64,000 nucleotides of DNA, taken from Dehalococcoidia bacterium. Lineage in GTDB: Bacteria; Chloroflexota; Dehalococcoidia; E44-bin15. The notes beneath the pieces were generated by a model, which did no database searches, was not told the DNA's origin, and worked only from the letters and a program-made list of their open reading frames with translations. The stretch spans positions 30,381 to 94,380 of the forward strand of contig DATKYK010000005.1 in NCBI GenBank assembly GCA_035528575.1, written 5' to 3'. Of the stretch, positions 4,150 to 27,652 are shown one piece after another (the stretch's first letter is position 1; each line of letters opens with the position of its first letter). The translations under genes were made by a program, and so were the position numbers.

Positions 4150-4228
4150 GTTTCCTCCCTGTTTTCACCTTGATACACTTTTCACCGAGGTCTTACTCTT
4201 GTGAGCACAACGTGCCACATTTGCAACC

Positions 4229-8981: not shown

Positions 8982-9060
8982 TGCGAAGGCAATGTAGCAC
9001 ATCCCGCTAAAGCCTGTCAAACGATATTTCACTGAAGTATTGCGTTAAAATTAACCAGAT

Positions 9061-9090
9061 TTGACAATACTCGTTTCTGTACTCTATAAT
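9061..9090 (+). promoter_or_regulatory. Sigma70-like promoter of the yedE-selD-selB operon (TTGACA, 18-nt spacer, TATAAT). It is followed by a ~125-nt leader.
   Basis: ttgacaatactcgtttctgtactctataat lies in the divergent selA/yedE intergenic region. Confidence 0.5.
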
Positions 9091-9217
9091 AATTCATTGA
9101 ATATAGAGAGCTAACTTGGAGAGGGGGTGAGATCGATGGCGAACCGACGCACATGAGCCGTGAAGCGGCTGAGAGCGTGGCTCTTAAAGACGGGTAAGAC
9201 CAAGAGAGAAGGAGGGC

Positions 9218-10318
9218 GTGTTTATGCGCGTTTCACGGCGGTTAACGCCGGGTACATTGATCTTCGCCTCCGCGCTGCTGATAGGTATCCTGGCGGCATT
9301 CCTGGTGAAGTGGGGAAACCCACAGAACATGGGAATATGCGTAGGCTGCTTCCTGAGGGATATTTCAGGTTCGCTCGGCCTACATCAAGCGAGTGTTGTA
9401 CAGTATCTCCGCCCTGAGATCATCGGCTTCGTCTTAGGCAGCTTCATCGCTGCCTATGCCTTCAAGGAATTTCGGTCTAGAGGTGGCTCCGCCCCGCTAG
9501 TCCGATTTTTTTTGGGCATGTTCATGATGATCGGGATACTGGTATTCCTCGGCTGCCCGGTGAGGGCACTGCTCCGGCTTGCCGGCGGCGACCTGAATGC
9601 TATCACTGGCCTTGCTGGCGTGGCATTCGGCACCTTCGGCGGAGTGCTCCTACTCAAGAGAGGCTTTAGCCTGGGGCGTGCGGTGAAGAGGCCGACGGTA
9701 GCAGGGTGGATAATACCGGCGGTTATGGCCGGGCTCCTGATCATGGCGATAGTTCAGCCCGGCTTCCTCATTGAGAGCGAAACGGGTCCCGGCTCAATGC
9801 ACGCCGCGCTAATCGTCTCCCTGGCGGTGGGCCTGCTGGTAGGCTTCCTTGCCCAGCGGACTAGGATGTGCACTGTTGGAGGCTGGCGCGACCTGTTCCT
9901 TGTCAGGGATACCTATTTGTTTAAGGGAATAGTCGGTCTTTTCCTCGGGGCGCTGTTGACAAACCTGATCCTCACCCATGGTTTTGGTGAAAGCCTGTTC
10001 AATCTCGGCTTTGAGAATCAGCCAATCGCTCATGCCAACCACCTGTGGAACTTCCTTGGCATGGCACTGGTGGGACTGGCGGCAACCCAGCTCGGCGGCT
10101 GCCCCCTGCGCACACTGGTGCTTAGCGGCGAGGGGGATACCGATGCCGGCATGACCGTCCTCGGCCTGCTCGTCGGCGCCGCTATAGCACATAACTTCAC
10201 TCTGGCCAGTACTTCTGCCGGTCCGTCGGGGCTGGGACCTTGGGCAGTAGTCGCGGGGCTGGTGCTCTGCATAGGCCTCGGATTCCTGCTGCGGGAGAGA
10301 AAGACGATACAACGCTAG
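9218..10318 (+). CDS. yedE: YedE/YeeE-family membrane protein (putative selenium/sulfur-compound transporter)
   Basis: 366 aa, polytopic, with two internal repeats. Conserved Cys-containing motifs GICVGCFLRD and TRMCTVGGWRD are typical of YedE. GTG start with a GAAGGAGGG RBS. Confidence 0.8.
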   Translation: MFMRVSRRLTPGTLIFASALLIGILAAFLVKWGNPQNMGICVGCFLRDISGSLGLHQASVVQYLRPEIIGFVLGSFIAAYAFKEFRSRGGSAPLVRFFLGMFMMIGILVFLGCPVRALLRLAGGDLNAITGLAGVAFGTFGGVLLLKRGFSLGRAVKRPTVAGWIIPAVMAGLLIMAIVQPGFLIESETGPGSMHAALIVSLAVGLLVGFLAQRTRMCTVGGWRDLFLVRDTYLFKGIVGLFLGALLTNLILTHGFGESLFNLGFENQPIAHANHLWNFLGMALVGLAATQLGGCPLRTLVLSGEGDTDAGMTVLGLLVGAAIAHNFTLASTSAGPSGLGPWAVVAGLVLCIGLGFLLRERKTIQR

Positions 10319-10327
10319 GAGGCATAT

Positions 10328-10870
10328 ATGTCACTTTCAAAATGGAAAAAAAAACCAGCCTTCGAGGGAGGGGGATTGGTTCTGTTCATGGATGTTCAGG
10401 CTGCCTTGAAGGCCGAGAAGGTGCTAAAGGGTACAGGGCACGCCGTTAAACTGATCGCCCCTCCCCCGGAACTGCGCAAAGGCTGCGATCTGGCGGTTGA
10501 AATAAACCTGGTAGAACAACCGGGCATTGAGCGGGTCTTCGATGAGAACGACGTCTTCTATGTGGAGATCGTTCCTCTTGGAGAGGGGTATTCCGAGCTT
10601 CTGGACATCGTACAGGTGACAGATTTCGGGGACTGGGTGATGGTCAAGGCAGGCAACATGAAGCTTACCTTTGACAAGGAGACCGGAGTCATCGTAAACA
10701 CATCCGGCGGGGGATGCCCCGATATCCCCGTCATGCACACCAAGCTGGTCGATAGAAAGCTCACCGAGGCACCCAAACCTAAGGAGATCGGCTTTACCCT
10801 GTGTTCCCTGATGCTGCACCGGGCTTTAGAGGAGAGCCTTCTCATATGGCAGGGGGGTGAGCAACAATGA
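10328..10870 (+). CDS. DUF3343-like N-domain (putative Se/S carrier) fused to an uncharacterised C-terminal domain carrying an SGGGCPDIP motif
   Basis: Residues ~15-80, LVLFMDVQAALKAEKVLKGTGHAVKLIAPPPELRKGCDLAV, resemble the ~70-aa DUF3343 proteins found beside yedE/yedF/selD, including the conserved Cys. Here the protein is 180 aa, with an extra ~100-aa domain. Confidence 0.5.
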   Translation: MSLSKWKKKPAFEGGGLVLFMDVQAALKAEKVLKGTGHAVKLIAPPPELRKGCDLAVEINLVEQPGIERVFDENDVFYVEIVPLGEGYSELLDIVQVTDFGDWVMVKAGNMKLTFDKETGVIVNTSGGGCPDIPVMHTKLVDRKLTEAPKPKEIGFTLCSLMLHRALEESLLIWQGGEQQ

Positions 10871-11766
10871 TGCTTATCGCCGGGACGATTCCCGATGAGG
10901 GCGTGCCGCTGACTGTTGGTGACGTCAGTATCGAGGACAATTATCTGGCTGTCTTTGGGCACCGGTTTCCCTGCATGCAGGGAACCGGCGCTATGATCAG
11001 CGCGGCACTGGCGGTCACTGACTACCTGAAGCTCGACCGGCCCCAGGTTGTTATCGCCGGCGACATCGGCAAGGGTAAAGGGAGCCGGGCAATCTACGAA
11101 TACCTTATCCAGAATATAAGGACTCTTTCGCCAAGAGTGCTCGCGCTGCACTACTGGCTGCCCGATATGGCCCTAACGAGGAGACTATGCCAGGCCGTCG
11201 ATAACTGTGAGAGCAGGCCGATCTTAGTCGCCGATGCGGCCTCGATGTATTCCGCCAAGGCAGCGGGGCTGGCTTCATGCTTCGACATCTTTACCCCGGA
11301 CGCTACTGAAATGGCCTTCCTCGCCGACACCTCAGCCACCCACCCTGCCTATATCGCCAGGCATCTCTTCGATAACGATATCACACAGACACCGAATCTA
11401 GTTGCTGCTGCCTACCAGAATAGGGGCGCAGCCAGGTTGCTTCTAGTCAAGGGAGCAGTTGACTACGTGATTCGTGATGGTGAGATTCTGGAAAGGGTGG
11501 ATGAACCGGATGTGCCTGAGTTGGAGGCTATAGGGGGGACCGGCGACACCATTACCGGCCTGGTCTCCGCTTTCGTCTACGCTGGCCTGGAACCGCATCA
11601 AGCAGCCATAATCGCAGCCAAAGCAAACCGTATGGCAGGGAAGTTCGCCCAGCCTACACCGGCAACCAAGGTTAGTGAAATCGTAAAACAGTTCCCCGCT
11701 GTGTTTAAGGAATACCTCTGTGAGTGGAGCGGGGTTTGCCTTACACGAGGAGGAAAAAATGACTGA
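10867..11766 (+). CDS. Ribokinase-superfamily-like protein (YjeF-C/ThiM-like fold, GGTGD motif) of unknown function, embedded in the selenium cluster
   Basis: 299 aa. Motif EAIGGTGDTITGLVSAFVYAG is typical of ADP/ATP-dependent small-molecule kinases/dehydratases of the ribokinase fold. Overlaps neighbours by 4 and 8 nt, so co-translated with yedE and yedF. Confidence 0.4.
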   Translation: MMLIAGTIPDEGVPLTVGDVSIEDNYLAVFGHRFPCMQGTGAMISAALAVTDYLKLDRPQVVIAGDIGKGKGSRAIYEYLIQNIRTLSPRVLALHYWLPDMALTRRLCQAVDNCESRPILVADAASMYSAKAAGLASCFDIFTPDATEMAFLADTSATHPAYIARHLFDNDITQTPNLVAAAYQNRGAARLLLVKGAVDYVIRDGEILERVDEPDVPELEAIGGTGDTITGLVSAFVYAGLEPHQAAIIAAKANRMAGKFAQPTPATKVSEIVKQFPAVFKEYLCEWSGVCLTRGGKND

Positions 11767-11971
11767 AGTCGATGCCCGCGGGCTATCATGCCCGATGCCG
11801 GTAATAAAGACTAAGAACGCCTTGGAAGACATAGAGTCAGGGGACGTGGTAGTCATCGTCAATGACGCTACAGCGCGCGATAACGTTACTCGCCTGGCAA
11901 AAAGCAAGGGGTGTGCCATCTCTGTGGAGCGAAAGGGGGATGATTTTTATCTAACCCTGACTAAGGGTTAA
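11759..11971 (+). CDS. yedF: TusA/SirA-like sulfur(selenium)-carrier protein, YedF-type
   Basis: 70 aa from the ATG at 11759 (GGAGGA RBS). CPxP motif DARGLSCPMPVIKTK. The ORF track's longer version from 11720 probably over-extends. Confidence 0.7.
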   Translation: MTEVDARGLSCPMPVIKTKNALEDIESGDVVVIVNDATARDNVTRLAKSKGCAISVERKGDDFYLTLTKG

Positions 11972-12085
11972 AAGGGGCAGAGCAAAGGAACCGAGATTCG
12001 TTCCGTGTGAAAAAAGTTGTGCGGCTTCAGCCAAGATGCTATGATGGTTCAACTACCATTCGCACTCCACAATGAAGGGAGGACA

Positions 12086-13138
12086 ATGGACGACCAAGTG
12101 AGGCCAAGGCTCACCGAGACCGTTCGCGGCTCCGGCTGAGCTTCCAAGATAGGTCCGTCGGACCTGGATAAAGCATTGTGCGGCCTGCCCCTGGTCGATG
12201 ACCCGAACCTGCTTGTCGGCCTGGAGAAGGGTGATGATGCTGCAGTGTATAGGCTGAACGATGAGCTGGCCATCATCCAGACCATCGATTTCATTACGCC
12301 CATCGTCGATGACCCCTATACCTTCGGGCAGATCGCTGCCGCCAACGCCCTTAGCGATGTCTACACCATGGGGGGCAGGCCCCTCACCGCGATGAATGTT
12401 GTCTGCTTCCCCACGAAGAGCCAGGAGATATCGGTGCTCAGGGACATCCTGCGCGGTGGATTCGATAAACTACAGGAGGCAGGGGTTGCCCTTGTTGGTG
12501 GGCACAGTGTAGAGGATAACGAACTGAAATACGGGCTATCGGTAACCGGCGTGGTACACCCAGCCAAGATAATCACCAGGGAGGGAGCCGAGATAGGGGA
12601 TAAGTTGATCCTCACCAAGCCCCTGGGCACGGGACTGGTTAGCACCGCCCTGAAGGGTGGATTGGCAGGAGAGGAGGCTGTGGCGGGAATCGTTAGCTCT
12701 ATGATTACATTGAACAGAAGGGCATCGGAGCTAATGCTGGAAGCTGAAGTACACGCCTGTACCGATATAACCGGCTACGGTCTCCTGGGGCATGCCTGTG
12801 GAATGATAGAGGATGGCCAGTTGGGCATGGAGCTCCATGTGGGGGCCATTCCCCTCTTCCCAGAGGCGAAGGAGTTCGCCCAGATGGGTCTGGCTCCAGC
12901 GGGAACACATCGCAACAGGGAGTTTCGCCTTAATATGATAGAGCAGGCTTATGAGATAGGCGATGATATATGGAGCATCCTATTTGACCCCCAAACCTCG
13001 GGTGGATTGCTGATCTCGGTCCCGGGTAAAGAGGCTGAGGCGCTACTGCAAAACCTGCACCGGAATGGCATAGAGGATGCTGCCATCATTGGAGCGGTAA
13101 TAGGCAAACCGAAGGGAAAAATCGTCATCCGGGAGTGA
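12086..13138 (+). CDS. selD: Selenophosphate synthetase (selenide, water dikinase), selenoprotein form with in-frame UGA
   Basis: ATG at 12086 (GGGAGG RBS) gives MDDQVRPRLTETVRGSGUASKIGPSDLDKALCGLPLVDDPNLLVG... The TGA at 12137-12139 aligns with catalytic Cys17/Sec of SelD (E. coli [20 protein letters not shown]). The rest matches SelD throughout. The ORF track started only at 12176, after the UGA. Confidence 0.85.
12137..12166 (+). other. Sec-encoding UGA of selD followed 11 nt later by a SECIS-like hairpin (AGGUCC-GUC-GGACCU)
   Basis: Hairpin at 12151-12165, at the canonical bacterial SECIS distance from the UGA, with G/U in the loop. Confidence 0.6.
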
Positions 13139-13141
13139 AGT

Positions 13142-14992
13142 ATGTCCTTTGTCCTGGGCACCGCAGGTCATGTCGATCACGGGAAATCGGTTCTGGTTAA
13201 GGCCCTCACCGGGATAGACCCGGACCGGCTGCGGGAGGAGAAAGAGAGAGGCCTGACCATCGACCTCGGCTTTGCCTGGTTAGAGCTGCCCAGCGGTCGA
13301 GCTGTAGGCATTGTGGACGTCCCCGGACATGAGCACTTCATAAAGAACATGCTCGCCGGTGTTGGAGGCATCGACATCGCCCTGCTCGTTGTCGCCGCCG
13401 ATGAAGGGGCAATGCCCCAGACCAGGGAGCACCTGGCCATTCTCGACCTGCTGAAGGTTGAAAATGGCATCGTAGTAATCACCAAGAAAGATCTGGTAGA
13501 CGATGAGCTGCTGGAATTGGTAACACTGGAGCTAAATGAGCTGCTGGCGAGTACAACGCTGTCCCAAGCCCCGATACTCGCCGTCTCCGCACTCACCGGC
13601 GAGGGCTTGCCCGAGTTGGTTTCCACCATTGACCTGGTTTTAGATTCGGCCACGCCCAAGCAGGACATCGGCAGACCAAGGCTTCCCATAGACCGTGTCT
13701 TTACCATGACTGGTTTTGGCACCGTGGTTACCGGAACCCTGGTCGATGGTTCTTTATCCAAGGGGCAAGAAATAGAGATCCTGCCCTCCGCTCTTACAGC
13801 ACGTATACGCGGGCTGCAATCACACAAGCAGAAGATCGACACTGCCCCTCCGGGCAGCCGCGTTGCGGCTAACCTGTCCGGTTTGTCTACCGTTGAGCTT
13901 GCGCGTGGCGATGTGGTGACCACCCCTGGTTGGCTCCTGCCGACCAGAGCGTTCGACGTCAAGCTACGCCTGCTGCCCTCTGCACCCCGCCCTCTCCCCC
14001 ATAATGCTACCGTTACCTTTCACCATGGGGCCGCCGAGGTGCTGGGGAAGGTCCGCCTGCTGGAAAGGGACAGGATTGACCCAGGGGAAACAACATGGGC
14101 TCAGTTTCTACTTGCTCAGCCCATTGCGGCTGTTAAGGATGACCGATTCATCATTCGCTCCCCCCAGGAGACCCTTGGCGGAGGGCAAATCGTTGGCCCC
14201 CGGGCAAAACGACACCGCCGCTTTCGCCCCGATGTCATTGAGAGACTAGCCACCAGGGAGGCGGGCACCGCTGAACAGATAATCCTGGCCATTATACAAG
14301 AAGAAGGGCCTCTCGAGCTGGAGAGGTTGCTGTCCCTCTGCAATCTGAGGCAAGGGGAAGCAGAGCAAGCCATAAAATCACTGGCCGCCCAGAAGAATGT
14401 TATAGCACTGAGAGACATGGGGCTGCTTTTCTCAGCCCAGGGTTGGGAAAAGCTGTCAAAGCAAGCAGAGCAAGCTGTCCGGAGATACCACCAGCAATTC
14501 CCGCTTCGCCACGGCCCTCCTAAAGAGGAACTAAAAGGCAAGCTGAAGACCCGCACCAAGTTCTTTGCCCACATACTGGAGCAGCTTATACAGGAAGGCA
14601 CTCTAATTGAGGTGGGGCCAATGGTGCGCCTGCCAGAGCACGAGCCTCAGCCAACGCCAAAACAGCAGGCGGAGGTCGACGCTTTCCTGGATAGGCTGAC
14701 ACACAATCCCTACTTGCCGTCCCTCGATCCTCTACCTGAGCCGGACCTCCTCAATCTGCTCATAGAGAAGCGTCTGGTGGTGAAGGTAAGCGATGACGTG
14801 ATCTTCCTGGCCTCTATCTATGACAAGATGGTGGATGACATAATCGCCGAGATAAAATCACGGGGCAAGGTAACCGTAGCCGAGGTCCGCGACCTTTTCC
14901 ACACCAGTCGCAAATATGCCCTGGCCCTGATGGAATACCTGGACACGCAAAAATTAACCCGCCGCGTCGGTGATGAGCGGGTGTTAAGGTAG
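13142..14992 (+). CDS. selB: Selenocysteine-specific translation elongation factor
   Basis: 616 aa. GTPase domain GTAGHVDHGKS...DVPGHE... EF-Tu-like domains II/III plus C-terminal winged-helix SECIS-binding domains. Start is 4 nt after the selD stop. Confidence 0.9.
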   Translation: MSFVLGTAGHVDHGKSVLVKALTGIDPDRLREEKERGLTIDLGFAWLELPSGRAVGIVDVPGHEHFIKNMLAGVGGIDIALLVVAADEGAMPQTREHLAILDLLKVENGIVVITKKDLVDDELLELVTLELNELLASTTLSQAPILAVSALTGEGLPELVSTIDLVLDSATPKQDIGRPRLPIDRVFTMTGFGTVVTGTLVDGSLSKGQEIEILPSALTARIRGLQSHKQKIDTAPPGSRVAANLSGLSTVELARGDVVTTPGWLLPTRAFDVKLRLLPSAPRPLPHNATVTFHHGAAEVLGKVRLLERDRIDPGETTWAQFLLAQPIAAVKDDRFIIRSPQETLGGGQIVGPRAKRHRRFRPDVIERLATREAGTAEQIILAIIQEEGPLELERLLSLCNLRQGEAEQAIKSLAAQKNVIALRDMGLLFSAQGWEKLSKQAEQAVRRYHQQFPLRHGPPKEELKGKLKTRTKFFAHILEQLIQEGTLIEVGPMVRLPEHEPQPTPKQQAEVDAFLDRLTHNPYLPSLDPLPEPDLLNLLIEKRLVVKVSDDVIFLASIYDKMVDDIIAEIKSRGKVTVAEVRDLFHTSRKYALALMEYLDTQKLTRRVGDERVLR

Positions 14993-14996
14993 ATGA

Positions 14997-15084
14997 TGGC
15001 GGGAGCGCATAGGAGTCGAACCTACCGTAGACACCGCATGGTGCCCACCAACGGATTTGAAGTCCGCGGAGTCCACCGGGGCCC
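14997..15084 (-). repeat. Truncated 3' copy of tRNA-Sec (88 nt, lacks the 5' acceptor strand). Direct repeat of 21308-21395.
   Basis: Reverse complement reads ...GGGCCCCGGUGGACUCCGCGGACUUCAAAUCCGUUGG...GGUAGGUUCGACUCCUAUGCGCUCCCGCCA. It is identical to the full selC downstream except for 1 nt, but has no 5' GGGAGCG partner for the acceptor stem. Confidence 0.75.
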
Positions 15085-15295
15085 GTGTCAATGGTGGGGG
15101 TTAATGATGTGGTTACAATTTTGCAACCTGAGGTTGTGTTGGTAAGATAACAGGTTTATCGCATCCTGGGCTATGGGCAGTGCACAGAGAATTATTGTAT
15201 CAAGCACAGTTCGCAATGTTAGTATTGACAGCATATGCCATTGCAGCTTAGAATCTCGTAGGTATAATTTAAATTCAATTAGGAGGTAATGAGCA

Positions 15296-16222
15296 ATGTG
15301 GAAAGTACTAGTCATCGGCATTATGTTGGTATTTTTATTAGCCTTGGCAGGGACTTCTGCTGCCACAACTCAACCCATGGGGGGAGCGTTTGAGACGACG
15401 CCAAAGGATTTACCTGTAATGAAACTGCCCGATGATATGAGTGGAGGGCCGACGACGCCTACTGGCAATCCATATGGTGTGCCACCAGGCCAGGATAAAA
15501 AGCCAAAACCAGATGACGGTTCAGAGGCTAATAAATGGGCAGTTGTAATTGGTATTTCCAATTACAGAGCTGGTGATTCTCTGTGGAATCCAGCGAATGA
15601 TGCCAAAGAGATGAAACAGGCGTTGATTGATAATTATGGCTTTCCGGAGAATAACATTAAACTTCTATTGGACAGAAAGGCAACAGCAAGAGCCATCGAT
15701 AAGGCGATAGACTGGCTAGCTAAGAGCGAGGATGCTGACTCGTCGGTGGTATTTTTCTTTAGTGGTCATGGGTATCGTGCAGCGGATGCTGATAAATGGG
15801 ATTCCGATGACGAGGTCGATGGTTACGATGAATTGATAGTTACGTATGACAACTATGGCCTCCCAGATGGATGGTTAAAGGGTAAGCTTTCAACCCTAGA
15901 ATCGCTAAAAATTACACTCGCCTTTGGTTCGTGTCACTCAGGGGGCATGTTCGACGACCCTGATGACCTTCAGGGTGAGGGACGTGTCATTGCAGCTGCA
16001 TGCAAAGCAGATGAGTATGGTTGGGATTACCTGCAGCTACGTAATACTCTCTGGGGCTATTACTTTGTCGATGAGGGTTTGCTCCAGGGTCTTGCTGACT
16101 TAAATGGAGATGGCGTTTCTATCCAAGAAGCCCATGCCTATGCTTATGCTGGAGTGACATCAGTGAGGGATGACTCACACCCACAGATAAGCGACCAGTA
16201 TTTTGATGAGCTAATCCCTTAA
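15296..16222 (+). CDS. Secreted caspase-family (peptidase C14, metacaspase-like) protein
   Basis: Signal peptide, then a Pro/Gly-rich linker. C14 domain WAVVIGISNYR...NDAKEM...VVFFFSGHGY (His) and LAFGSCHSGGMF (Cys). Lower GC than the flanks. Confidence 0.7.
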   Translation: MWKVLVIGIMLVFLLALAGTSAATTQPMGGAFETTPKDLPVMKLPDDMSGGPTTPTGNPYGVPPGQDKKPKPDDGSEANKWAVVIGISNYRAGDSLWNPANDAKEMKQALIDNYGFPENNIKLLLDRKATARAIDKAIDWLAKSEDADSSVVFFFSGHGYRAADADKWDSDDEVDGYDELIVTYDNYGLPDGWLKGKLSTLESLKITLAFGSCHSGGMFDDPDDLQGEGRVIAAACKADEYGWDYLQLRNTLWGYYFVDEGLLQGLADLNGDGVSIQEAHAYAYAGVTSVRDDSHPQISDQYFDELIP

Positions 16223-16245
16223 TAATATAGAAGCTAGCAATAGAC

Positions 16246-16298
16246 GGGGGGCCACCCATTATCGGGTAGCCCCCCGTAATCCGCTTGGCTAGGCTTGG
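16246..16298. repeat. Islet repeat, composite copy 1. Element A (GGGGGGCCACCCATTATCGGGTAGCCCCCC, a hairpin-forming palindrome) plus element B (AATCCGCTTGGCTAGGCT).
   Basis: Element A recurs at 17777-17804 and 18796-18824, with ~20 nt of shared upstream flank GCTGTGGGyAA. Element B recurs at 16561-16578 and 17681-17698. Confidence 0.65.
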
Positions 16299-16310
16299 TA
16301 CGGCGCATCT

Positions 16311-16529
16311 CTACAACTTGAGTTTCTGAACTATCTCACCCTGGTTGGGAAACCGGCCAGTTTCACCCTTGGAGAACACGAGCTTATCATCTGCAAAAAC
16401 ATCAAAGATGCCGTTGCTACCGGGGACTAGCTTTGTCTCTACACCAAAGGCATTGCGTAGTTCATCCGCCAGACTGGCGGCAGCGGGCTCATAGTTTCAT
16501 TGCCTGCAATAATGTATGTCAACTTTCAT
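16311..16529 (-). CDS. SelW-like (Rdx-family) selenoprotein with CxxU motif and in-frame UGA at 16497-16499
   Basis: Minus-strand translation MKVDIHYCRQUNYEPAAASLADELRNAFGVETKLVPGSNGIFDVFADDKLVFSKGETGRFPNQGEIVQKLKL (72 aa). CRQU sits at the Rdx redox motif position, and the C-terminal G.F.V...KLVFSK..GRFP signature is typical of SelW/Rdx. AGGAGG RBS 6 nt upstream. Missed by the ORF track because of the TGA. Confidence 0.65.
16466..16499 (-). other. UGA (Sec) codon of the selW-like gene with a SECIS-like hairpin (CCGCCAG-UC-UGGCGG) 16 nt downstream in the mRNA
   Basis: Hairpin at plus coordinates 16466-16480 on the minus strand, with G/U in the apical loop. Confidence 0.45.
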
Positions 16530-16548
16530 AATGTACCTCCTGCGGATT

Positions 16549-16581
16549 CTACCCTCTCCCAATCCGCCTGGCTGGGCTCTT
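16549..16581 (-). promoter_or_regulatory. Conserved 5'-leader element (element B plus flank) immediately upstream of the selW-like gene
   Basis: Minus-strand AGCCCAGCCAGGCGGATTGGGAGAGG...AGGAGGtacattATG. The same ~30-nt block precedes the nitrilase-like ATG (17671-17703). Confidence 0.45.
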
Positions 16582-16842
16582 TGCGCCGCTATCTTTTGTG
16601 GTTGTGAGCATACTCCTGGGCAGTTAGACTGTCAAGAGGCTACCAACTAAAACCGAACCGAGCCGAATGGCGGTCTACCAATCCGCTTTTCAAATCACAC
16701 ACTAATTGGCAGTTTTGGGGCATACGGTAGTTGAAGTTTGCCATGCTATTGTTTTTAACATTACTCTGTCGCGAATTCTCTAGATGAAAAAAATAGATAG
16801 GCGGGGATTAAAACATGACTGGCAAAGATTGTCGAGACCTCA

Positions 16843-17667
16843 CTATGGTGGGGGAACAGCTAAAGATGTAGTTAAATTAGAACAGGCAGCGGGATTTTGG
16901 AGCGAGAAGTCTAATATTTTTATTTTTATACGAGGAGTACCTTCTAAAACCTTATTTGAACACTCCGTAGACATATATCCTTTGTGGGGAATATAGTATC
17001 TAAACTTAGCATCTGGGCCTTGCACATGAAGCGAACACATAGAGGCAATGCCATGCTCACCCTCGCCAAGCCCCTTCATACCATGATGTACTCTAAATCC
17101 AGCCCCTCTGTGGCCTAAATCAGCTACAACATTAGATCTGGATTTGCATTCTCTCAAAGCATCTCGGATACGTTGATTAAATATCTCCCCACATATAAGC
17201 ACTCCGAGAGCTTCATCACCTATCATTAGTAGACGTACTTCCTTGCACCTCCTGTTATCTACTAACCACTGGTTATCGCTATCGGTTGACCTCTGCCTAC
17301 CATAATGAATCATCTCTTCAGTTGGACCCCAAGCATATCCATACATAGGGTCAGGCCACCATACCGTAGCCTGCTTTTGTACTTTTACTTTTGTCTTTGA
17401 CCTATGCTGGGTAGAGTCTTTATTCTCCTCATCTACTCCGAATACTACAGCAATACTTAATCTTTCAGCCTCATTTATAAGGGAATTTGCGATACGTTGT
17501 CTTGACTGAGAATCATCACAAGTAAAAAATCCACCAGGCAGCACTAATACATCAGCGCCTAATTCCTTCGCCGCTATTAAGGCCTGCTTCGCAGCTTCCA
17601 GCCTCTGTTGATTCTCGGCAGGAGTTTCAGGCCCCTGAGTTCCCACCGTAGTCGCTGCTATTTTCAT
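16843..17667 (-). CDS. Carbon-nitrogen hydrolase (nitrilase-superfamily)-like protein. Assignment is uncertain.
   Basis: 274 aa. ADVLVLPGGFF and LICGEIFN are reminiscent of the CN-hydrolase catalytic Cys context, but the motifs are atypical. A GGAGAGG RBS lies inside an islet-specific repeat. Confidence 0.35.
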   Translation of the reverse strand: MKIAATTVGTQGPETPAENQQRLEAAKQALIAAKELGADVLVLPGGFFTCDDSQSRQRIANSLINEAERLSIAVVFGVDEENKDSTQHRSKTKVKVQKQATVWWPDPMYGYAWGPTEEMIHYGRQRSTDSDNQWLVDNRRCKEVRLLMIGDEALGVLICGEIFNQRIRDALRECKSRSNVVADLGHRGAGFRVHHGMKGLGEGEHGIASMCSLHVQGPDAKFRYYIPHKGYMSTECSNKVLEGTPRIKIKILDFSLQNPAACSNLTTSLAVPPP

Positions 17668-17670
17668 GTT

Positions 17671-17703
17671 GTCCTCTCCAAATCCGCCTGGCTGGGCTGT
17701 TTA
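17671..17703 (-). promoter_or_regulatory. Second copy of the conserved 5'-leader element, upstream of the nitrilase-like gene
   Basis: Minus-strand ACAGCCCAGCCAGGCGGATTTGGAGAGGacaacATG. Confidence 0.45.
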
Positions 17704-17754
17704 AGTCACTACGTTGTTCGTGAAAGCGATAATACTCCTGCGTTACTAGCCTAT

Positions 17755-17825
17755 CAATGCTGTGGGCAATAACAGAAAGGCCGCCCATTATCGGGTAGCC
17801 CCCTACAATGCGGCTGGTTATGCTA
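17755..17825. repeat. Islet repeat, composite copy 2 (A plus degenerate B)
   Basis: caatgctgtgggcaataacagaaaggccgcccattatcgggtagccccctacaatgcggctggttatgc. Confidence 0.6.
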
Positions 17826-17969
17826 ATGCTTCTAACTCACATTCCCGCCATCTTGCACCCTAAGACCCTCCTGCGCAGCAGTTATGCCAGAATGCCCGCC
17901 CCCTTATCCCGACAGGGCGAATATCGCTGTCACTGCATTAAGGAATCCTCATTGATTAACTAGATAGGC

Positions 17970-18266
17970 TTATCGAGATAATCTTTTTGCAATTTCAACT
18001 ACTTGGCTCAGCGAAGCGACAGGATGCACCTTGAAAAAGACGAACGGAACATAGCGTTGCACCATATCGCCAATTTCCTCCTCAGTTCCCTCAGCAACTG
18101 CATAGCCGTTGATCTCGCCAACGAATGCCCCCCAATCCTTAGTTAAACCTTTTTGCATATCTTTCTTAACCATATCGAGCAAGGTACCCCATCCGGTCCC
18201 TCGCTCTTGAGGACTAATAGGTACTTTCGTCCGGTCTACTTCCCAAAGCATCAGATACTTTCCCAT
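17970..18266 (-). CDS. Hypothetical small protein (98 aa), possibly a GYD/alpha+beta-barrel-like fold
   Basis: ORF with a weak NGYAVAEG motif. No confident family. Confidence 0.3.
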   Translation of the reverse strand: MGKYLMLWEVDRTKVPISPQERGTGWGTLLDMVKKDMQKGLTKDWGAFVGEINGYAVAEGTEEEIGDMVQRYVPFVFFKVHPVASLSQVVEIAKRLSR

Positions 18267-18539
18267 GGCCTTGTTCCTCCTTCTCTGATTAGTCTTCTGG
18301 CTTGCACTCGATTCTCAGGCTACGCGATATCATCACCTCCCTCGCTTTATATGCAGTGAGCCAGGGCTGGGCTTCTATACCCCGCTTAAAGGTTTTTAGG
18401 CAAAACCGTAGGTCACCATACTTCCTGAGCCGATATTCTTTTTTGTGTGAATCCTCAGTTTTGCCCGTATGTGATTATGGCTATTCTTGGCGCAACATTC
18501 CCATTATCAATTTAATTGTAATGGTGAACGGCACTTTTG

Positions 18540-18633
18540 TCTGTAGAGAAAGTCTGTATTTTTTGTGGGGAAAGTCTGTATATTTTTGTGTGGGGAAAAC
18601 CCTGACAAAAATGTGGATTTTTGTAGGGAGGGC
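18540..18633. repeat. Iteron-like direct repeats (AAGTCTGTAT(A)TTTTTGTG(T)GGGGAAA x2 plus a degenerate third copy, with GTCTGTA x3)
   Basis: Seen directly, ~300 nt upstream (in minus sense) of the 98-aa gene. Confidence 0.5.
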
Positions 18634-18773
18634 TTGACACACGTCGATACCGCAGTGCGGGCTGGCAGGCTCAAGGGTGCGGGGAAGCAGGAGCGCAGCC
18701 CGCAAGCACCGTGCGTAGCCCTATCGGGCAAGGCAAGGCAACGCTGCCTATATAGTAGTGAAAACTAGGCTGT

Positions 18774-18826
18774 CAGTGCTGTGGGTAAAAAGATAGGGGG
18801 CCACCTATTTTCGGGTAGCCCCTGTT
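18774..18826. repeat. Islet repeat, copy 3 (element A with shared upstream flank). Lies just 3' of the beta-helix gene stop.
   Basis: gtgctgtgggtaaaaagatagggggccacctattttcgggtagcccctg. Confidence 0.6.
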
Positions 18827-18851
18827 ATCTTTCTGTACGCTACCGTGTAGC

Positions 18852-20675
18852 CTACGCTACTCTCTTCCTCTTAATCAACACTGCAACTGTCATAGCTACC
18901 ACTATAAGAGCAGCAAGTCCCAGCCACGGTGCTAGTATGCCAATCTTATCCACAGGCTCGACAATCCCGCCAACTGCAACCTGTCTCTCATATGCTCCCA
19001 CGTCGCAGACGTAGGTGCCATCTATATCCCCGTCCGCCGGCCGTGGTTGCCCCCGCTGGTCGGTGGTTAGGTTACATGAAACAATGCAGGCGTCTATGGC
19101 CGGGCTGCCAGTTATTAGAGCGTGGGTCTCTGTGGGACCCCCGTTATCCTGAAGCGGGCCGAGGAGGGGGTCGGGAGCAGGGCTAAGAAGCTCATCTACG
19201 ATGGATTCGCCGCCGATGTCTAAGTACTCACCGTAGTAGTTCTTATCAACAGCAGCATTATTACCGTATATTATGGTGCATCTTAGCTCTACATACTCCG
19301 CCCAACCCGTCCCTTCGTTATAAACGCCACCACCCCAATTCTGTGCAGAGTTATTGCTTACCGTGCAGTTAGTAAGAGTTGTAAGGCCCACGTAGGTATA
19401 TATGCCACCACCTTCCTTAGCGTTGTTTCCACTCACTGTACAGTTGGTCATATCCACTCGGCCACTATCATTACGAATACCACCACCGTTATCCCCGGCT
19501 TCGTTGCCGCTGATGGTGCAGTTGGTCAGCGTCACCTCGTCTTCATTGTTATAAATACCGCCGCCATCGCCAGAGGCGTTGTTTCCGCTGATGGTGCAGT
19601 TGGTCATCGTCACCGTGAAATCCGGCCCGACGGTACCAATGCCGCCGCCGTTGCCGTCCCGGGCAGTGTTGCCGCTGACGGTACAATCGGTCATCGTCAC
19701 GTGACCGCCGTAGTTATAAATGCCGCCTCCGTTATAGGCCTCATTTCCGCTTACGGTGCAGCCGGTCATCGTCAGCTCATCACCATAATCATTAAAGATG
19801 CCACCACCATTATTGTCGGCATCGTTTCCGCTTACGGTGCAGCCGGTCATCGTCACATTGCCACTATTATAAATGCCGCCTCCGTCGGGAGCCTCATTTC
19901 CAATTATGGTGCAGTTGGTCATCTCAAGCGGGCCATCGTTCCGAATGCCGCCGCCTTCGGTATCGGCCTTGTTATCGCTGACGGTGCAGCCGGTCATCGT
20001 CAGCCCATCTCCCGCCCCCCCGTTGTTATAAATGCCACCGCCGAGCATCCCGCTCGCGGCAGTGTTTCCGCTGACGGTGCACTTGGTCAGTGTCACCTCG
20101 CCCCCGTCTCTATAAATGCCGCCTCCCCAAAAATTAGCCTCATTCCCACTTATGGTGCAGCCGGTCATCGTGAGATTGCCACCGTTGTTATATAGGCCGC
20201 CTCCATTATAAGCCTCATTCCCACTTACGGTGCAGTTGGTCATCGTCACATTGCCGTATTCGTTATATAGACCGCCGCCGTTTGCTGCGGTTGAAACATT
20301 GCCATTCCGAATCGTCATGCCGGACATATCGACCGTGGAATTATTTATATAAAACACCCTGCTCATATCCTCACCGTCAACGAAGGTGCTTCCCGCACCT
20401 GCACCCCGTAGCGTCAGGGACTTGTTTATTGTAATGTCATGCTCATTGTATTGCCCTGCTGCTATGATGATGGTATCGCCTGCGGATGCGTTCCCGATAG
20501 CGCTCTGAATTTTACAGAACGGGTTGCCCACCGTGCCTGTCCCTGGCCCAGGGCAGCTCGTAGCATCAACATACCAAGGCGGTTGTGCAGACACTGTGCC
20601 TATTGGAATTATTACCGAGGCCAACGAAAATACAAGTACCAGAGCCACTACCATACTAACCATCCTGGCTTTCAT
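18852..20675 (-). CDS. Secreted parallel-beta-helix repeat surface protein with a C-terminal membrane anchor and basic tail
   Basis: 607 aa. Signal peptide. More than 15 tandem ~22-aa repeats of the type GGGIYN.G.VTMTNCTVSGN.A (PbH1-like). C-terminus ...IGILAPWLGLAALIVVAMTVAVLIKRKRVA. Confidence 0.65.
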   Translation of the reverse strand: MKARMVSMVVALVLVFSLASVIIPIGTVSAQPPWYVDATSCPGPGTGTVGNPFCKIQSAIGNASAGDTIIIAAGQYNEHDITINKSLTLRGAGAGSTFVDGEDMSRVFYINNSTVDMSGMTIRNGNVSTAANGGGLYNEYGNVTMTNCTVSGNEAYNGGGLYNNGGNLTMTGCTISGNEANFWGGGIYRDGGEVTLTKCTVSGNTAASGMLGGGIYNNGGAGDGLTMTGCTVSDNKADTEGGGIRNDGPLEMTNCTIIGNEAPDGGGIYNSGNVTMTGCTVSGNDADNNGGGIFNDYGDELTMTGCTVSGNEAYNGGGIYNYGGHVTMTDCTVSGNTARDGNGGGIGTVGPDFTVTMTNCTISGNNASGDGGGIYNNEDEVTLTNCTISGNEAGDNGGGIRNDSGRVDMTNCTVSGNNAKEGGGIYTYVGLTTLTNCTVSNNSAQNWGGGVYNEGTGWAEYVELRCTIIYGNNAAVDKNYYGEYLDIGGESIVDELLSPAPDPLLGPLQDNGGPTETHALITGSPAIDACIVSCNLTTDQRGQPRPADGDIDGTYVCDVGAYERQVAVGGIVEPVDKIGILAPWLGLAALIVVAMTVAVLIKRKRVA

Positions 20676-21307
20676 TTTCGCAACATCCTCCCAGTTTGAA
20701 ATTGAAAGGGTATTAATCCCTGCTAATTATGTGCGCCGTGCGTGATTTCAATCGAAATTAGACCATATCTGATAGAGCCTGTCAATGGCTCTAAGCAGCG
20801 GCGGATGGCAACAGGCTGGCGGGCTCAAGATACCGGTTGGCCAGATGGGTAGGCTAGAATATCCTGCTGCTATTAAATTCTGTAGCTATTCAATGACTTT
20901 TTCATGTTGATTAGTATACCTATTCAACGCAAAGTTCAACGTGACAGGCTCACCGGTCGAGAATTACCATTCTACCTTCCAGCTCCACCCCCGGCCATAA
21001 ATATACCCTCGAATATAAACACGTAGCCACTCCAGGGCAAATATGAGCGCTTTAACCTAATTCTAAGCCTGGGGCGACGGTGAGCTGTGCTGTGGCTGGT
21101 GAGCATATACACTCTAGCGGGGTGAAATTGCCGGTAAGAAGCTAGGACGTGATTGGGTAGTCCTGAGCTTGGACTATAAAAGGAAGAGGAAGCCGAAGGT
21201 TAAGAAAGGAGAGGGCAATGCAAAAAGCTGATCAAACTGCTAAGCAATTCGTTGCGGAAGAGTTTCAAACACCTCCAAATAATTCCGTAAAACCGCTGAA
21301 ATTAGAT

Positions 21308-21405
21308 TGGCGGGAGCGCATAGGAGTCGAACCTACCGTAGACACCGCAAGGTGCCCACCAACGGATTTGAAGTCCGCGGAGTCCACCGGGGCCCATCCG
21401 CTCCC
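21308..21405 (-). tRNA. selC: tRNA-Sec (anticodon UCA), full length with encoded CCA
   Basis: Reverse complement GGGAGCGGAU GGGCCC-CGGU-GGACUC ... GCGGA-CUUCAAA-UCCGU ... long variable stem-loop ... GUAGG-UUCGACU-CCUAU GCGCUCCC G CCA. It has a 6-bp D-stem with 4-nt loop, UCA anticodon, long extra arm and 5-bp T-stem, all typical of bacterial tRNA-Sec. There is a G-G mismatch at acceptor pair 8. Confidence 0.8.
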
Positions 21406-21996
21406 ACTATTTATCAAAGCTCTACCTGGGCTTCAGGCAGCGCAATACGCTTCTTAGATGGCTGGACAAGCAAAACCAGAAATGCTTCCGCAAGGTAGGG
21501 GTGGACCGCTGGTAACGCAATAAGCGAGCTTTCCCGATACCTAATAGAACATAACATCACCGGCACTCATCCCTAGAAGCCTGATGATCTCACACAAGGC
21601 CCCGCCACCATATCCTACTGCATAACAATTCTGGAAGTCGCATTCTGTCACATTATTCACAAACTGTCAAGCATCAAACCAGAGCACATCAAGGTGTCGC
21701 CAGAGCTGTAAAGCGATAGCCCTGTCGTACCGCCTCACCTCGGCCAGCGAATCCACTGCCAAAAGGGGTAATCTCAGGCTACTGAGAGAATATCTCATGA
21801 AACAGGGAGGATTCAAGTACATTGCCCAAGAGCAGATAAATGAACTTCAGGGCTGGATAAATGCCCGGTGCCAACTTTGCCTGGACCGGGCTAACGAATT
21901 TATAGAAAGTGCTCTCGCTTACCAAGGACTGGAAGGAAAAGAAAACGATAACCAACCTCAAGGAGTGAGCAATTCTATGATTGTGCTTTTTTTCAC

Positions 21997-22025
21997 TTTA
22001 CAAAAAAAATGACATGTTGTATAAT
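21997..22025 (+). promoter_or_regulatory. Sigma70-like promoter of the nuo operon (-35 TTTACA, 17-nt spacer, -10 TATAAT)
   Basis: tttacaaaaaaaatgacatgttgtataat, ~55 nt upstream of the nuoA TTG start. GGAGGGG RBS. Confidence 0.5.
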
Positions 22026-22081
22026 GCCAAAAGTTGTTGTAAAATACTGCAGGTTTCCAAATTAACTCGGAGGGGCGATAT

Positions 22082-22453
22082 TTGCTAGGTGACTTCGGTT
22101 ACATTGGAATTTTCCTCGTTGCTGCTCTTGGTTTTACCGCCTCAATGATCCTAATCCCCGTTACCCTCAGGCTCCTCCACATCGTCCCCCGGAAGCCCAA
22201 CCCCACAAAGTACACCACCTATGAGTGCGGCATGGAAACGATAGGCAACTCCCGGGTTCAATTCAACTTCCGCTATTATTTCTTTGCCCTGCTCTTTGTA
22301 ACCTTCGATGTACAGGTGGTCTTTCTCTATCCCTGGGCAGTGGAGCTAAAGCAGCTTAAGCTCTTCGGGCTGGTGGAGATGCTGGCATTCGTACTGATCC
22401 TGATGGTCGGTTTTGTCTATGCGTGGAGAAAGGGGGTTCTAAAGTGGAAATAG
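22082..22453 (+). CDS. nuoA: NADH-quinone oxidoreductase subunit A
   Basis: 123 aa, 3 TM. ...[40 protein letters not shown]... conserved NuoA core. TTG start. Confidence 0.85.
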
Positions 22454-23040
22454 AGATGCCCTATGTGAGCAGCGAGCTGGATAAGACCGAGGGCGCGGAA
22501 ATAGAGGCGCTCATCGCAGCTTCAAGGGAGCCCTATCCCGATCCGGTAGCCTGGCTCCATGAGGAGCTTCAGCGCAATGTGCTGCTTACCTCAACCGAGC
22601 ACGTTATAGACTGGGGGAAGCGCTACTCTGTCTGGCCGGTTCTCCTGGGGCTCGCCTGCTGCGCCTTCGAGATGATCTGTGCTGCTGCTTCGCGCTATGA
22701 TTTCTCTCGATTCGGCATGGAGGTTTTTCGCTTCTCCCCACGCCAGGCCGACCTGATGCTTGTTGCCGGCACGCTCACCTGGAAGATGGCCCCAGCCCTG
22801 AGGCGAATCTATGATCAGATGGCCGAGCCGAAGTGGGTCATAGCTATGGGGGCCTGCACTATCAGCGGTGGGGCATTCCGTGGTTCCTATAGCGTGGTTC
22901 CCGGGATAAACCTCATCGTCCCGGTAGACGTCTACATCCCCGGGTGCCCGCCTCGCCCCGAGGGTCTGCTCCACGGATTCATGGAGCTGCATCGCAAGGT
23001 CTTGAAAGACAAACTTATAAAGAAAGAAAAGGATGACTAA
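22423..23040 (+). CDS. nuoB: NADH-quinone oxidoreductase subunit B (N2 cluster subunit)
   Basis: Motif GLACCAFEM...GACTISGG...IPGCPP (four Cys ligands of cluster N2). The true start may be the ATG at 22456, directly after the nuoA stop. Confidence 0.85.
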
Positions 23041-23497
23041 GCAGCTTTCCGGCCCAGAGGTCGCACAGCAAGTAGGAGGGCGATTCCCCGACGCGATCAC
23101 TGGTTCCGATGAAACCGCTGTTTTCGTCCGCGGCGAAGCGCTTCTTGAAGTGGCGCGCTTCATCAAAGAGAGCCTCGATCTCGATTACCTCAACAGCATC
23201 ACCGCCGTCGATTACATCGACTATTTCGAACTGGTATACCTTCTAACCTCGCTAGAAAATAACCATAGCATCATCTTAAAGACGAGGTGCGATGAGCGCG
23301 AAAATCCCAGGCTGCCCTCGGTGGTCAGCCTGTGGCAGGGGGCCGATTTTCAGGAGCGCGAGATCTATGACCTCATGGGCATCTCCTTTGAGGGACACCC
23401 CAATATGAAGCGAATCTTCCTCTGGGATGGGTTCAAGGGGCATCCTCTGAGGAAGGATTTTGTTATAGACGTGCCGGGCGGTGGGAAAGCGACGTAG
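23033..23497 (+). CDS. nuoC: NADH-quinone oxidoreductase subunit C (30 kDa)
   Basis: 154 aa. ...[42 protein letters not shown]... matches the NuoC core. Confidence 0.8.
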
Positions 23498-23507
23498 CAG
23501 GGAGTAA

Positions 23508-24611
23508 ATGACGCTCAAGACCGAGCCAGTCACTATTAATATAGGGCCGCAGCACCCCTCAACCCATGGGGTATTTCGGATGAGGGTCACCTTCGATGGC
23601 GAGGTGATCGTCGATATGGAGCCCATCTTTGGCTACCTCCACCGCGGGATCGAGAAGCTCGCAGAGCATAAAACCTACACCCAGAATATCCCCTTTACCG
23701 ATAGGCTGGACTACCTGGCCTCGATGTCCAATAACTTTGCCTACGTGCTAGCGGTGGAGAAGCTTGCCGGTATCGAGGTCCCCGAGCGGGCAGAATATAT
23801 CAGAATAATAATGGCCGAGCTTATGCGGATTGCCAGTCACCTCATGGGAGTGGGATTTTTCTTCAACGACATGGGAGCCTTCATGACGCCGGTCCTTTAT
23901 ATGTTACGCGAGCGGGAAAAGATCCTAGACCTCTTTGAGATGGCCTGCGGGCAGCGCCTGACCTATAACTATATGCGCTTCGGCGGGGTTAGCCACGATA
24001 TCCCCCAGGAGTTTATACCGGCACTGAAGAGGTTTATCGGTGAGATGCCCCGCTATATCGATGAATACGACCAGCTTCTTGCCGAGAACGAGGTGGTACT
24101 TGCCCGCGCCAAGGGAGTGGGCATTCTACCAGCGGATAAGGCAATCAACGCTTCGGTCGCCGGCCCGGTGCTGCGTGCCAGCGGGGTAAAGTGGGACCTG
24201 CGCAAGGCAGATCCCTACTCTATCTATGACCGGTTCGATTTCGACATCCCTACCGGCACCAATGGCGATAACTACGACCGGTACCGGATTAAGATAGAGG
24301 AGATTAAGCAGAGCGTGCGCATTATCGAGCAGGCTATGGAGCAGATTCCCCAAGGGGAGGTACGCACCAGGGTATCGCCGACATTCAAGCCGCCTAAAGG
24401 GGAAGCCTACGGCAGGGTGGAGGGCCCCAAGGGAGAGCTGGGCTTTTATCTGGTGAGCGATGGCTCTGCTAAACCCTATCGCTTCAAGGTACGTGCCCCA
24501 ACACTACTAAACCTCACCGTACTCCGCGATATGATTATCGGACGGATGCTGGCAGATGCCATAATCACCTTTGGCAGCATTGACATCTGTATGGGCGAGG
24601 TGGATCGCTAG
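23508..24611 (+). CDS. nuoD: NADH-quinone oxidoreductase subunit D (49 kDa)
   Basis: 367 aa. [39 protein letters not shown]...ICMGEVDR matches Nqo4/NuoD end to end. Confidence 0.9.
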
Positions 24612-27600: not shown

Positions 27601-27652
27601 GGACAATAACCGGGTGGTTGAGGAGGAGAGAGAGAAGGAAAAGGTGACGTGA
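24611..27652 (+). CDS. nuoH/nuoI: Tripartite fusion: NuoH (aa 1-~330), an extra TM helix, the NuoI N-terminal segment, a GltD-like NAD(P)H/FAD oxidoreductase domain (~440 aa), the NuoI 2x[4Fe-4S] ferredoxin domain, and an acidic/basic tail
   Basis: The N-terminus matches NuoH through ...[50 protein letters not shown] is an added TM segment. [38 protein letters not shown] aligns with the NuoI N-terminus. [54 protein letters not shown] matches the GltD/DPD Fe-S N-domain. [17 protein letters not shown] is the FAD Rossmann motif and [31 protein letters not shown] the NAD(P)H Rossmann motif. [12 protein letters not shown] and [12 protein letters not shown] are the two NuoI CxxCxxCxxxCP motifs. No separate nuoI gene exists, and nuoJ overlaps the stop by 4 nt. 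Confidence 0.8.
   Translation: [1013 protein letters not shown]

Follow-up and report, generated by a model that had tools for sequence, protein, structure and literature searches.

In a 64,000-nucleotide stretch of DNA from a Dehalococcoidia bacterium (contig DATKYK010000005.1, positions 30,381 to 94,380 of the forward strand; the whole stretch is referred to below as the window), the minus strand between positions 16529 and 16311 holds a reading frame of 72 codons that is interrupted by a TGA at codon 11. The question raised by this locus is how that TGA is read, and whether the interval encodes a full-length protein. The evidence presented here makes it very probable that a functional gene occupies this region and that it encodes a SelW-like (Rdx family) selenoprotein of 72 residues with a Cys-x-x-Sec active site, where Sec is selenocysteine (U). 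The gene is carried on a 6.2-kb insert in selC, the gene for tRNA-Sec.

A Reading Frame across a TGA

Read from 16529 to 16311, the minus strand translates as MKVDIHYCRQ-TGA-NYEPAAASLADELRNAFGVETKLVPGSNGIFDVFADDKLVFSKGETGRFPNQGEIVQKLKL-TAG, with the stop codon at 16313-16311. The TGA (16499-16497) is found three codons 3' of a Cys codon (Cys8, 16508-16506), and the resulting CxxU context is Y-C-R-Q-U, residues 7-11, directly after the N-terminal β-strand. A Shine-Dalgarno sequence, AGGAGG, is read at 16541-16536, 6 nt upstream of the ATG, and GGAGG is kept in the same place upstream of the homologues described below. An earlier note on this DNA had described the frame and a well-spaced ribosome-binding site (RBS), and both read exactly as it had them, coordinates included. 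It had also proposed that the open reading frame (ORF) track was blind to the gene owing to the TGA. The mechanical ORF list of the window indeed contains no ORF for the interval, and that reason is upheld; public gene calls on contigs identical to the window likewise leave the interval empty.

When the TGA is read as Cys, the Pfam model Rdx (PF10262) aligns with residues 2-71 at an E-value of 5.9e-21 and 74.9 bits, against a cut-off of 22.6. Two NCBIfam models also score above their cut-offs, namely NF041051, "SelT/SelW/SelH family (seleno)protein" (91.4 bits, cut-off 88), and TIGR02174, "CXXU_selWTH" (63.2 bits, cut-off 34.2). The SelW/Rdx assignment in the earlier note, for which a profile search allowing U had been suggested, is thus borne out by three curated models. 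Since the Rdx alignment spans the TGA, both halves of the frame are one gene. Sequence matches in the PDB comprise the bacterial Rdx proteins 3DEX, 2FA8, 2P0G, 2OJL, 2OKA and 2OBK together with human MIEN1 (2LJK), with E-values from 5e-9 to 2e-7. The CxxC of the solved Rdx proteins aligns over the CxxU here (YCTQC in 3DEX and 2FA8); the TGA takes the place of the second Cys, which agrees with the redox position that had been claimed for it. A thioredoxin-like fold may be assumed from homology to these solved structures (E = 5e-9).

SelW-like proteins, which carry a CXXU motif, have long been recognised as a family of bacterial selenoproteins and were surveyed in the mid-2000s (PMC1088965, PMC1794560). 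With 48 genes, they outnumbered every other selenoprotein family in the Sargasso Sea data (PMC1088965), and few Cys homologues were found in Sec-using organisms (PMC1794560). The function of the family is described as unclear, with the CXXU suggesting a redox role and an interaction with glutathione reported (PMC1088965). As the curated models and these older surveys already name the family, the gene is not a new kind; it is an unannotated addition to a family already described, and the mechanism that decodes it is known as well.

Conservation of the TGA in Homologues

Homologues were collected from one genome per GTDB species with the peptide patterns AASLADEL[RH] and G[ST][NE]GIF..., which gave 25 genomic loci. 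In these and in three further homologous DNAs that were fetched, the TGA occurs at the identical codon in every case (28/28), with the flanking codons varying. The sources cover at least seven phyla and include Dehalococcoidia, Actinomycetota, KSB1, Fibrobacterota, Planctomycetota, Acidobacteriota, Gemmatimonadota and Myxococcota, with Vicinamibacterales and Polyangiaceae among the named groups; the closest genomic homologue, at 85% amino acid identity, is again from Dehalococcoidia. Upstream of the TGA, the ten codons show conservation at the protein level. The earlier note had named, as a finding that would refute the gene, relatives with a sense codon in place of the TGA and a different frame; the 28 DNAs all have the TGA.

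The nearest database proteins are either full-length with Trp at the critical position (P0001-P0005) or fragments of 52-55 residues that start after the TGA (P0006-P0009). The DNA fetched for three of these entries has TGA at the critical codon in each case (tgccaacagTGAaac, tgcgcaccaTGAaac, tgtgcacccTGAaac), and in both CxxW entries that were checked the W corresponds to TGA in the DNA. Because the DNA has TGA, the W comes from gene callers that apply a TGA = Trp code. An unbiased search of 1.84 billion representatives, with a profile built from the alignment of database homologues, returned 1625 matches. The best 150 of these 1625 include at least 50 CxxW entries, about 24 fragments whose start lies past the TGA, and no fewer than 38 genuine CxxC proteins; this is the classical Sec/Cys pairing.

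As a side observation on these databases, P0001-P0005 and many of P0010-P0159 are SelW-like selenoproteins stored either as CxxW, on short contigs, or as C-terminal fragments of 50-60 residues. Entries of these two types are a systematic annotation artefact.

A Hairpin Downstream of the UGA

A hairpin of the bacterial selenocysteine insertion sequence (bSECIS) type lies at 16480-16466 on the minus strand, with arms CCGCCA (16480-16475) and UGGCGG (16471-16466) closing a GUC loop (16474-16472). It begins 16 nt past the UGA, its loop begins 22 nt past it, and its calculated energy is -8.6 kcal/mol alone and -9.9 kcal/mol in context. The earlier note had placed a hairpin at this distance, and its presence and starting point were correct; the 7-2-6 form in which it was drawn is better replaced by a 6-bp stem with a GUC triloop, as this is the sterically sensible form. 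The published bSECIS model calls for a loop of 3-9 nt, an upper stem of 4-16 bp, 16-37 nt from the UGA to the loop and a minimum free energy (MFE) of -7.5 kcal/mol or lower, with a G in the first two loop positions that is usually followed by G or U (PMC13188914). The bSECIS check on the minus strand that the earlier note had suggested places the hairpin within four of four published criteria, with a 3-nt GUC loop, 6 bp, 22 nt and -8.6 kcal/mol.

Comparative data point to selection on this structure. Paired cells were counted in 29 sequences aligned without gaps; the share is 95.8% for the named hairpin and 19-48% for control registers with the 3' arm slid by 1-3 columns. The only pair formed by two third-codon positions (Ala17 and Ala21, pair 30-42) shows compensatory change, being CG in 21 sequences, UA in 3, GC in 2, UG in 1 and unpaired in 1. 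The codons within the hairpin are also restricted. For Ser19, the codon that provides G and U of the loop, AGT is used in 26/26 sequences; the comparator Ser53 is TCN in 25 and AGC in 1. Leu20 is YTG in 28/28, against 12/28, 9/21 and 9/22 for the comparators Leu34, Leu24 and Leu70. Ala18, for which there is no comparator, is GCC in 19/20. Equally conserved residues elsewhere in the protein do not have such restricted codons; selection on the protein cannot account for this pattern, whereas a constraint on the hairpin at the RNA level can.

A crude scan of all 64 kb of the window for in-frame TGA codons with a SECIS-like hairpin returned only selD, the SelW-like gene and two antisense artefacts inside the latter.

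Selenocysteine Machinery and Proposed Decoding

The window contains selA, selB, selC and selD. The gene for selenocysteine synthase, selA, lies at 9032-7620 on the minus strand (Pfam SelA, E = 5.5e-137), and selB, which encodes the elongation factor specific for Sec, at 13142-14992 on the plus strand (Pfam GTP_EFTU, Beta-barrel_SelB, SelB-wing_2 and SelB-wing_3). The intact tRNA-Sec gene, selC, with anticodon UCA, is found on the minus strand at 21405-21308 by ARAGORN and by Rfam (RF01852, 70.2 bits, E = 4e-13). The selenophosphate synthetase gene, selD (12086-13138, plus strand; Pfam AIRS and AIRS_C, and translation), likewise encodes a selenoprotein. Its reading frame contains a TGA at 12137-12139 (…RGSG-U-ASKIGP), and 17 nt further on there is a 7-bp hairpin with the same GUC loop. 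As with the SelW-like gene, automatic annotation fares poorly; the ORF list and the public gene calls have only the 320-residue part of selD past the TGA, from a TTG start.

Bacterial Sec insertion proceeds by the SelB-based mechanism summarised in PMC1794560. By analogy, the UGA at codon 11 would be decoded as selenocysteine during translation, with the hairpin CCGCCA-GUC-UGGCGG acting as the SECIS element. The complex SelB·GTP·Sec-tRNA(Sec) would engage the hairpin as the ribosome nears, the winged-helix domains of SelB, whose gene is 1.3 kb away, binding the RNA and delivering Sec-tRNA(Sec) to the ribosome. The Sec-tRNA itself would be made by SelA and SelD of the neighbouring locus with the adjacent selC. 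The product is most likely a small thiol/selenol oxidoreductase that would cycle between a Cys8-Sec11 selenenylsulfide and the reduced form.

A conserved functional partner was sought among the neighbours of the homologues, and only clade-limited ones were found. MsrA adjoins the SelW-like genes in one Actinomycetota metagenome-assembled genome (MAG) and in Vicinamibacterales, and the neighbours in Vicinamibacterales also include a pyridine-nucleotide disulfide oxidoreductase and a gamma-glutamyltranspeptidase. Neighbours of these three kinds lie at 6091-6627 in L007, around 5500-8000 in L017-L019, L023 and L024, and at 3234-4790 in L015. These clade-limited neighbours hint weakly at a thiol/glutathione redox context.

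Alternative Readings of the TGA

The TGA could be read as a stop, so that the interval yields a 10-residue peptide or, from an internal start, a protein of about 53 residues, with the hairpin a by-product of the AASLAD helix. Gene callers do give products of 52-55 residues that start after the TGA (P0006-P0009), an AxSLA motif is partly present in CxxC homologues, so that some of the nucleotide conservation is protein-driven, and the stability of the hairpin is unremarkable compared with shuffles. However, a product truncated in this way would be without strand β-1 and without the whole CxxU active site that defines the family. Moreover, the window offers no ATG, GTG or TTG at codons 12-29 (codon 30, GTA, is no start) and no RBS there, the protein sequence encoded by the ten codons that precede the TGA is conserved, and the synonymous codon restriction in the hairpin goes beyond what the protein requires. 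We therefore consider this reading very unlikely. It is more doubtful still that the interval is a pseudogene, either a former CxxC Rdx gene with a nonsense TGA or the decaying cargo of an island, from which no complete protein would result. The family does include CxxC versions, the foreign islet on which the gene lies has no mobility genes and may be decaying, and one homologue (L029) appears frameshifted; against this, 28 of 28 homologues across phyla keep the TGA at exactly the same codon, the frame is intact on either side of it with full-length profile coverage, the RBS is conserved, the hairpin is under synonymous-site constraint, and a complete Sec machinery is adjacent. Scarcely credible, finally, is an alternative genetic code in which TGA stands for Trp or Gly and the protein is CxxW or CxxG rather than a selenoprotein. 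The CxxW homologues in public databases (P0001-P0005) might suggest it, as might the fact that TGA terminates only 1 of the 13 nearby genes checked; yet the W of the database entries is TGA in the DNA, a dedicated tRNA-Sec and selA, selB and selD are present, and in-frame TGAs were found only at known Sec positions, in SelD and SelW, each with a SECIS-type hairpin. Under table 11 the surrounding genes, for example those of SelB, SelA and NuoD, are full length, with complete Pfam coverage and without internal TGA, and selD ends with TGA at the expected C-terminus, which excludes an alternative code.

Several observations weigh against a functional SelW-like selenoprotein gene and its hairpin. 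One of the two search patterns, AASLADEL, is the peptide encoded by the hairpin, and this biases the 25 genomic loci toward Sec-type genes. Shuffled sequences fold as well as the 73 nt that follow the UGA (MFE z = 0.25), and as this value is not distinctive, the comparative and synonymous-site tests were used instead. With the same 29-sequence alignment, RNAalifold prefers a register shifted by one, with 4 bp and no covariation. Changes on both sides of a pair are seen in only 1 of the 6 pairs, in sequences that are related to one another and that also conserve the AASLAD peptide. The RNAalifold register was judged inferior to the named hairpin, given the 95.8% of paired cells for the latter and 19-48% for the slid controls.

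An Islet Inserted in selC

The SelW-like gene lies within a 6.2-kb islet (15085-21307) inserted into the 3' part of selC, as indicated by its GC content, an 88-nt repeat and an empty site in a relative. GC is 0.43-0.49 within the islet versus 0.55-0.58 in the flanks. The direct repeat, 14997-15084 and 21308-21395, is identical at 87 of 88 positions and represents the tRNA-Sec, 98 nt long, over its 3' 88 nt. Its first copy, a minus-strand tRNA-Sec remnant without the 5' acceptor strand, follows 5 nt after the stop of selB and represents the displaced half of the integration site; it scores 46.4 bits with Rfam, just under the gathering score of 47, and receives no ARAGORN call. The empty site came from a SelB metagenome scan. 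The contig in question (L038) is 96% identical over selD-selB and has a complete tRNA-Sec 8 nt after selB, followed directly by the nuo-side flank of the window with no insert. The tRNA-Sec-flanked islet of the earlier note therefore stands, a low-GC segment bracketed by the repeat at a site that is uninterrupted in this relative. Beyond about 150 nt past its tRNA-Sec, the same contig has an FrhB/FdhB-like gene and a molybdopterin-binding (formate-dehydrogenase-type) C-terminus at 2593-4238, not nuoA; the far side of selC is thus also rearranged between close relatives.

Apart from the SelW-like gene, the islet carries a caspase-domain gene (15296-16222, plus strand), two minus-strand genes without family match (16843-17667 and 17970-18266) and a minus-strand gene for a beta-helix/PMP-repeat surface protein (18852-20675). 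Searches of the four islet ORFs against Pfam, NCBIfam and PHROGs turned up no integrase or other mobility gene, and 20676-21307 has no ORF of 50 or more residues on the relevant strand. As it has no integrase of its own, we refer to the segment as an integrated islet or remnant and not as a demonstrably mobile element.

Other relatives also have inserts between selB and tRNA-Sec, ranging from 0.5 to 4 kb. They measure about 550 nt in L039, L040, L042 and L045 and 2 kb in L048, and duplicated tRNA 3' ends are seen in L055, L074 (two extra copies), L076 and L100. In L076, a Phage_integrase fragment is found beside the intact tRNA, at 25.4 bits, below the Pfam cut-off of 27.1. As these varied inserts occupy one place, selC is a hot spot for repeated insertion in this lineage, with the islet in the window as one example. 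About 90 nt adjoining the tRNA 3' end (window 21218-21305) are common to the inserts of L039, L040, L042 and L045.

A different history can be proposed for the islet, though not for the gene, in which the tRNA-Sec copies arose by local duplication or rearrangement instead of site-specific integration and the position of the SelW-like gene is ancestral. The 6.2 kb contain neither an integrase nor an excisionase or transposase, 88 nt is long for an att site, and a distant relative, L029, also has a SelW-like gene near selD and yedE. On the other hand, the layout of intact tRNA, insert and displaced 3' fragment is the classical one, GC falls by about 10 points, the 96%-identical relative has an empty site, and in several relatives this spot is filled by other inserts, accompanied by duplication of the tRNA 3' end and, in one case, by the sub-cut-off integrase fragment. 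The closest SelW homologues, in addition, are in unrelated contexts. Together these data render local duplication unlikely, and insertion at selC is the reading that we follow.

Is the Gene Linked to selC?

The earlier note had seen a functional linkage in a selenoprotein gene carried on an element inserted at selC, and it had suggested that islets in relatives be checked. With tblastn, no SelW-like gene is found in any of 80 selB loci, and hence none of the other selC inserts has one. The four inserts bracketed by a duplicated tRNA 3' 16-mer (L055, L074, L076 and L100) were also scanned and gave no credible selenoprotein candidate; the single match returned was implausible. From the side of the homologues the picture is similar, since tRNA-Sec is near none of the 25 genomic loci, and these share no neighbours with the window except in L029 (selD and yedE). 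The linkage thus finds no support beyond the present case and is no more than a proposal.

The one locus with shared neighbours is an uncultured deltaproteobacterial MAG (L029), whose SelW-like gene (8001-8211) keeps the TGA and the hairpin and is frameshifted after about 30 codons; the frameshift could mark a pseudogene or a long-read indel error. Some 1.5 kb separate this gene from selD, and yedE-like, Se-carrier and Carb_kinase-like genes are also in its vicinity (9575-15365). In the window, the selenium-utilisation locus (7620-14992) is complete and comprises selA on the minus strand and six further genes, selD and selB included. Proteins encoded in this locus are a YedE-like Sulf_transp protein (9218-10318), an Se/S-carrier-like protein (10328-10870), a 299-residue Carb_kinase-like protein (10867-11766) and a YedF/TusA-like protein (11720-11971).

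Expression Signals and Islet Repeats

A candidate sigma-70-like promoter, TTGACA-17-TATGCT, lies at 16635-16607 on the minus strand, about 75 nt upstream of the ATG; it is a consensus match only, at 10 of 12 positions. Directly 3' of the SelW-like stop, the repeat search identified a minus-strand element (16295-16237) with a strong 12-bp hairpin (core 16250-16273), which is probably a terminator and/or an islet-specific repeat. The promoter-like site together with the strong hairpin 3' of the stop suggests that the SelW-like gene may be a monocistronic unit.

The hairpin repeat (GGGGCTACCCGATAATGGGTGGCC core, in repeats of about 59 nt) occurs three times on the minus strand, at 16250-16273, 17779-17802 and 18799-18822, each copy directly 3' of a minus-strand islet gene (the SelW-like gene, a 98-residue ORF and the beta-helix protein gene). 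The 64-kb window has no copy outside the islet, and the chance expectation is 0. Possible roles are as terminators, as a small repeat element or as boundaries of cassettes; with integrons in mind, attC-like core sites were looked for by eye at these repeats and none were seen.

A second motif, AGCCCAGCCAGGCGGATT, is found exactly at 16561-16578 and 17681-17698 and with 2 mismatches at 16278-16295. The SelW-like gene and the neighbouring 274-residue gene have paralogous upstream regions in which AGCCCAGCCAGGCGGATT stands just before the RBS, and similar -35/-10 pairs precede the two genes (16635-16607 and 17757-17729). A related motif precedes the SelW-like genes of L001, L005 and L022, indicating partial conservation in other Dehalococcoidia. 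The AGCCCAGCCAGGCGGATT upstream region may be a shared regulatory element. An Rfam search of 14000-24000 (E ≤ 1) returned only the two tRNA-Sec matches, and the motif in the 5' untranslated region and the repeats were not covered by it.

A more adventurous proposal would be that the islet is the remnant of a selC-targeting element whose choice of site ensures Sec-decoding hosts for its UGA-containing cargo, or that the AGCCCAGCCAGGCGGATT motif is a new regulatory element. We regard this as improbable. If the first of these were true, attachment-site specificity would be coupled to the decodability of the cargo.

Implications for Annotation

In this locus standard gene calling drops another selenoprotein, and the public calls on identical contigs omit the SelW-like gene and shorten selD. 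Genes that are missed, or deposited as CxxW or as entries of about 53 residues, distort selenoproteome counts for Dehalococcoidia, a class with two genomes among the ten most selenoprotein-rich organisms in the BSepDB 2026 catalogue (PMC13326102). The case also shows a selenoprotein gene moved between genomes on a small insert. It raises no new mechanistic question, as the protein family, the way in which the UGA is recoded and islands at selC were all known before, and the sole mildly unusual aspect of the SelW-like gene is its carriage on a selC insert.

Elsewhere in the window, the gene that follows nuoD (24611-27652, plus strand) encodes a 1013-residue product with NADHdh (NuoH-type), Fer4 and pyridine-nucleotide-disulfide oxidoreductase domains, according to precomputed Pfam matches on the identical public contig. 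Such a fusion is unusual in a nuo operon.

Comparison with Known Systems

The gene itself is no different from other members of the bacterial SelW-like family. Like them, it encodes a protein in the range of about 70-80 residues with the CxxU right after the first β-strand and a C-terminal G.F.V ... FSK..GRFP block; a small hairpin whose loop contains G comes after the Sec-UGA, and Sec forms are commoner than Cys forms among close relatives. The solved CxxC Rdx proteins (SAV_2001, 3DEX; Atu0228, 2FA8; and "Selenoprotein W-related", 2P0G) are homologous over the whole length. They have about 105 residues and Cys, whereas the protein here is a minimal 72 residues with Sec. Mammalian SelW, which we take to be a member of the same family, was not among the matches obtained here. 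Eukaryotic members of the family use a SECIS element in the 3' untranslated region; in contrast, the putative element here is inside the coding sequence.

The putative element shares with the E. coli fdhF-type and consensus bacterial SECIS a small apical loop with G followed by U and a GC-rich upper stem, at 22 nt from the UGA. It differs from the consensus in that its stem is short, with 6 bp closed by a triloop, and in that the 29-sequence alignment gave no sign of a conserved lower stem below the hairpin.

Genomic islands at selC are known, for example enterobacterial pathogenicity islands such as the locus of enterocyte effacement (LEE). With these the islet shares insertion in the 3' part of tRNA-Sec, a direct repeat, deviant GC and variable occupancy. 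It differs from them in being small (6.2 kb) and without an integrase, in its unusually long repeat (88 nt) and in a cargo that includes a selenoprotein gene. It is in this setting, an insert in selC, that the SelW-like gene of the window stands apart from its 25 genomic homologues.

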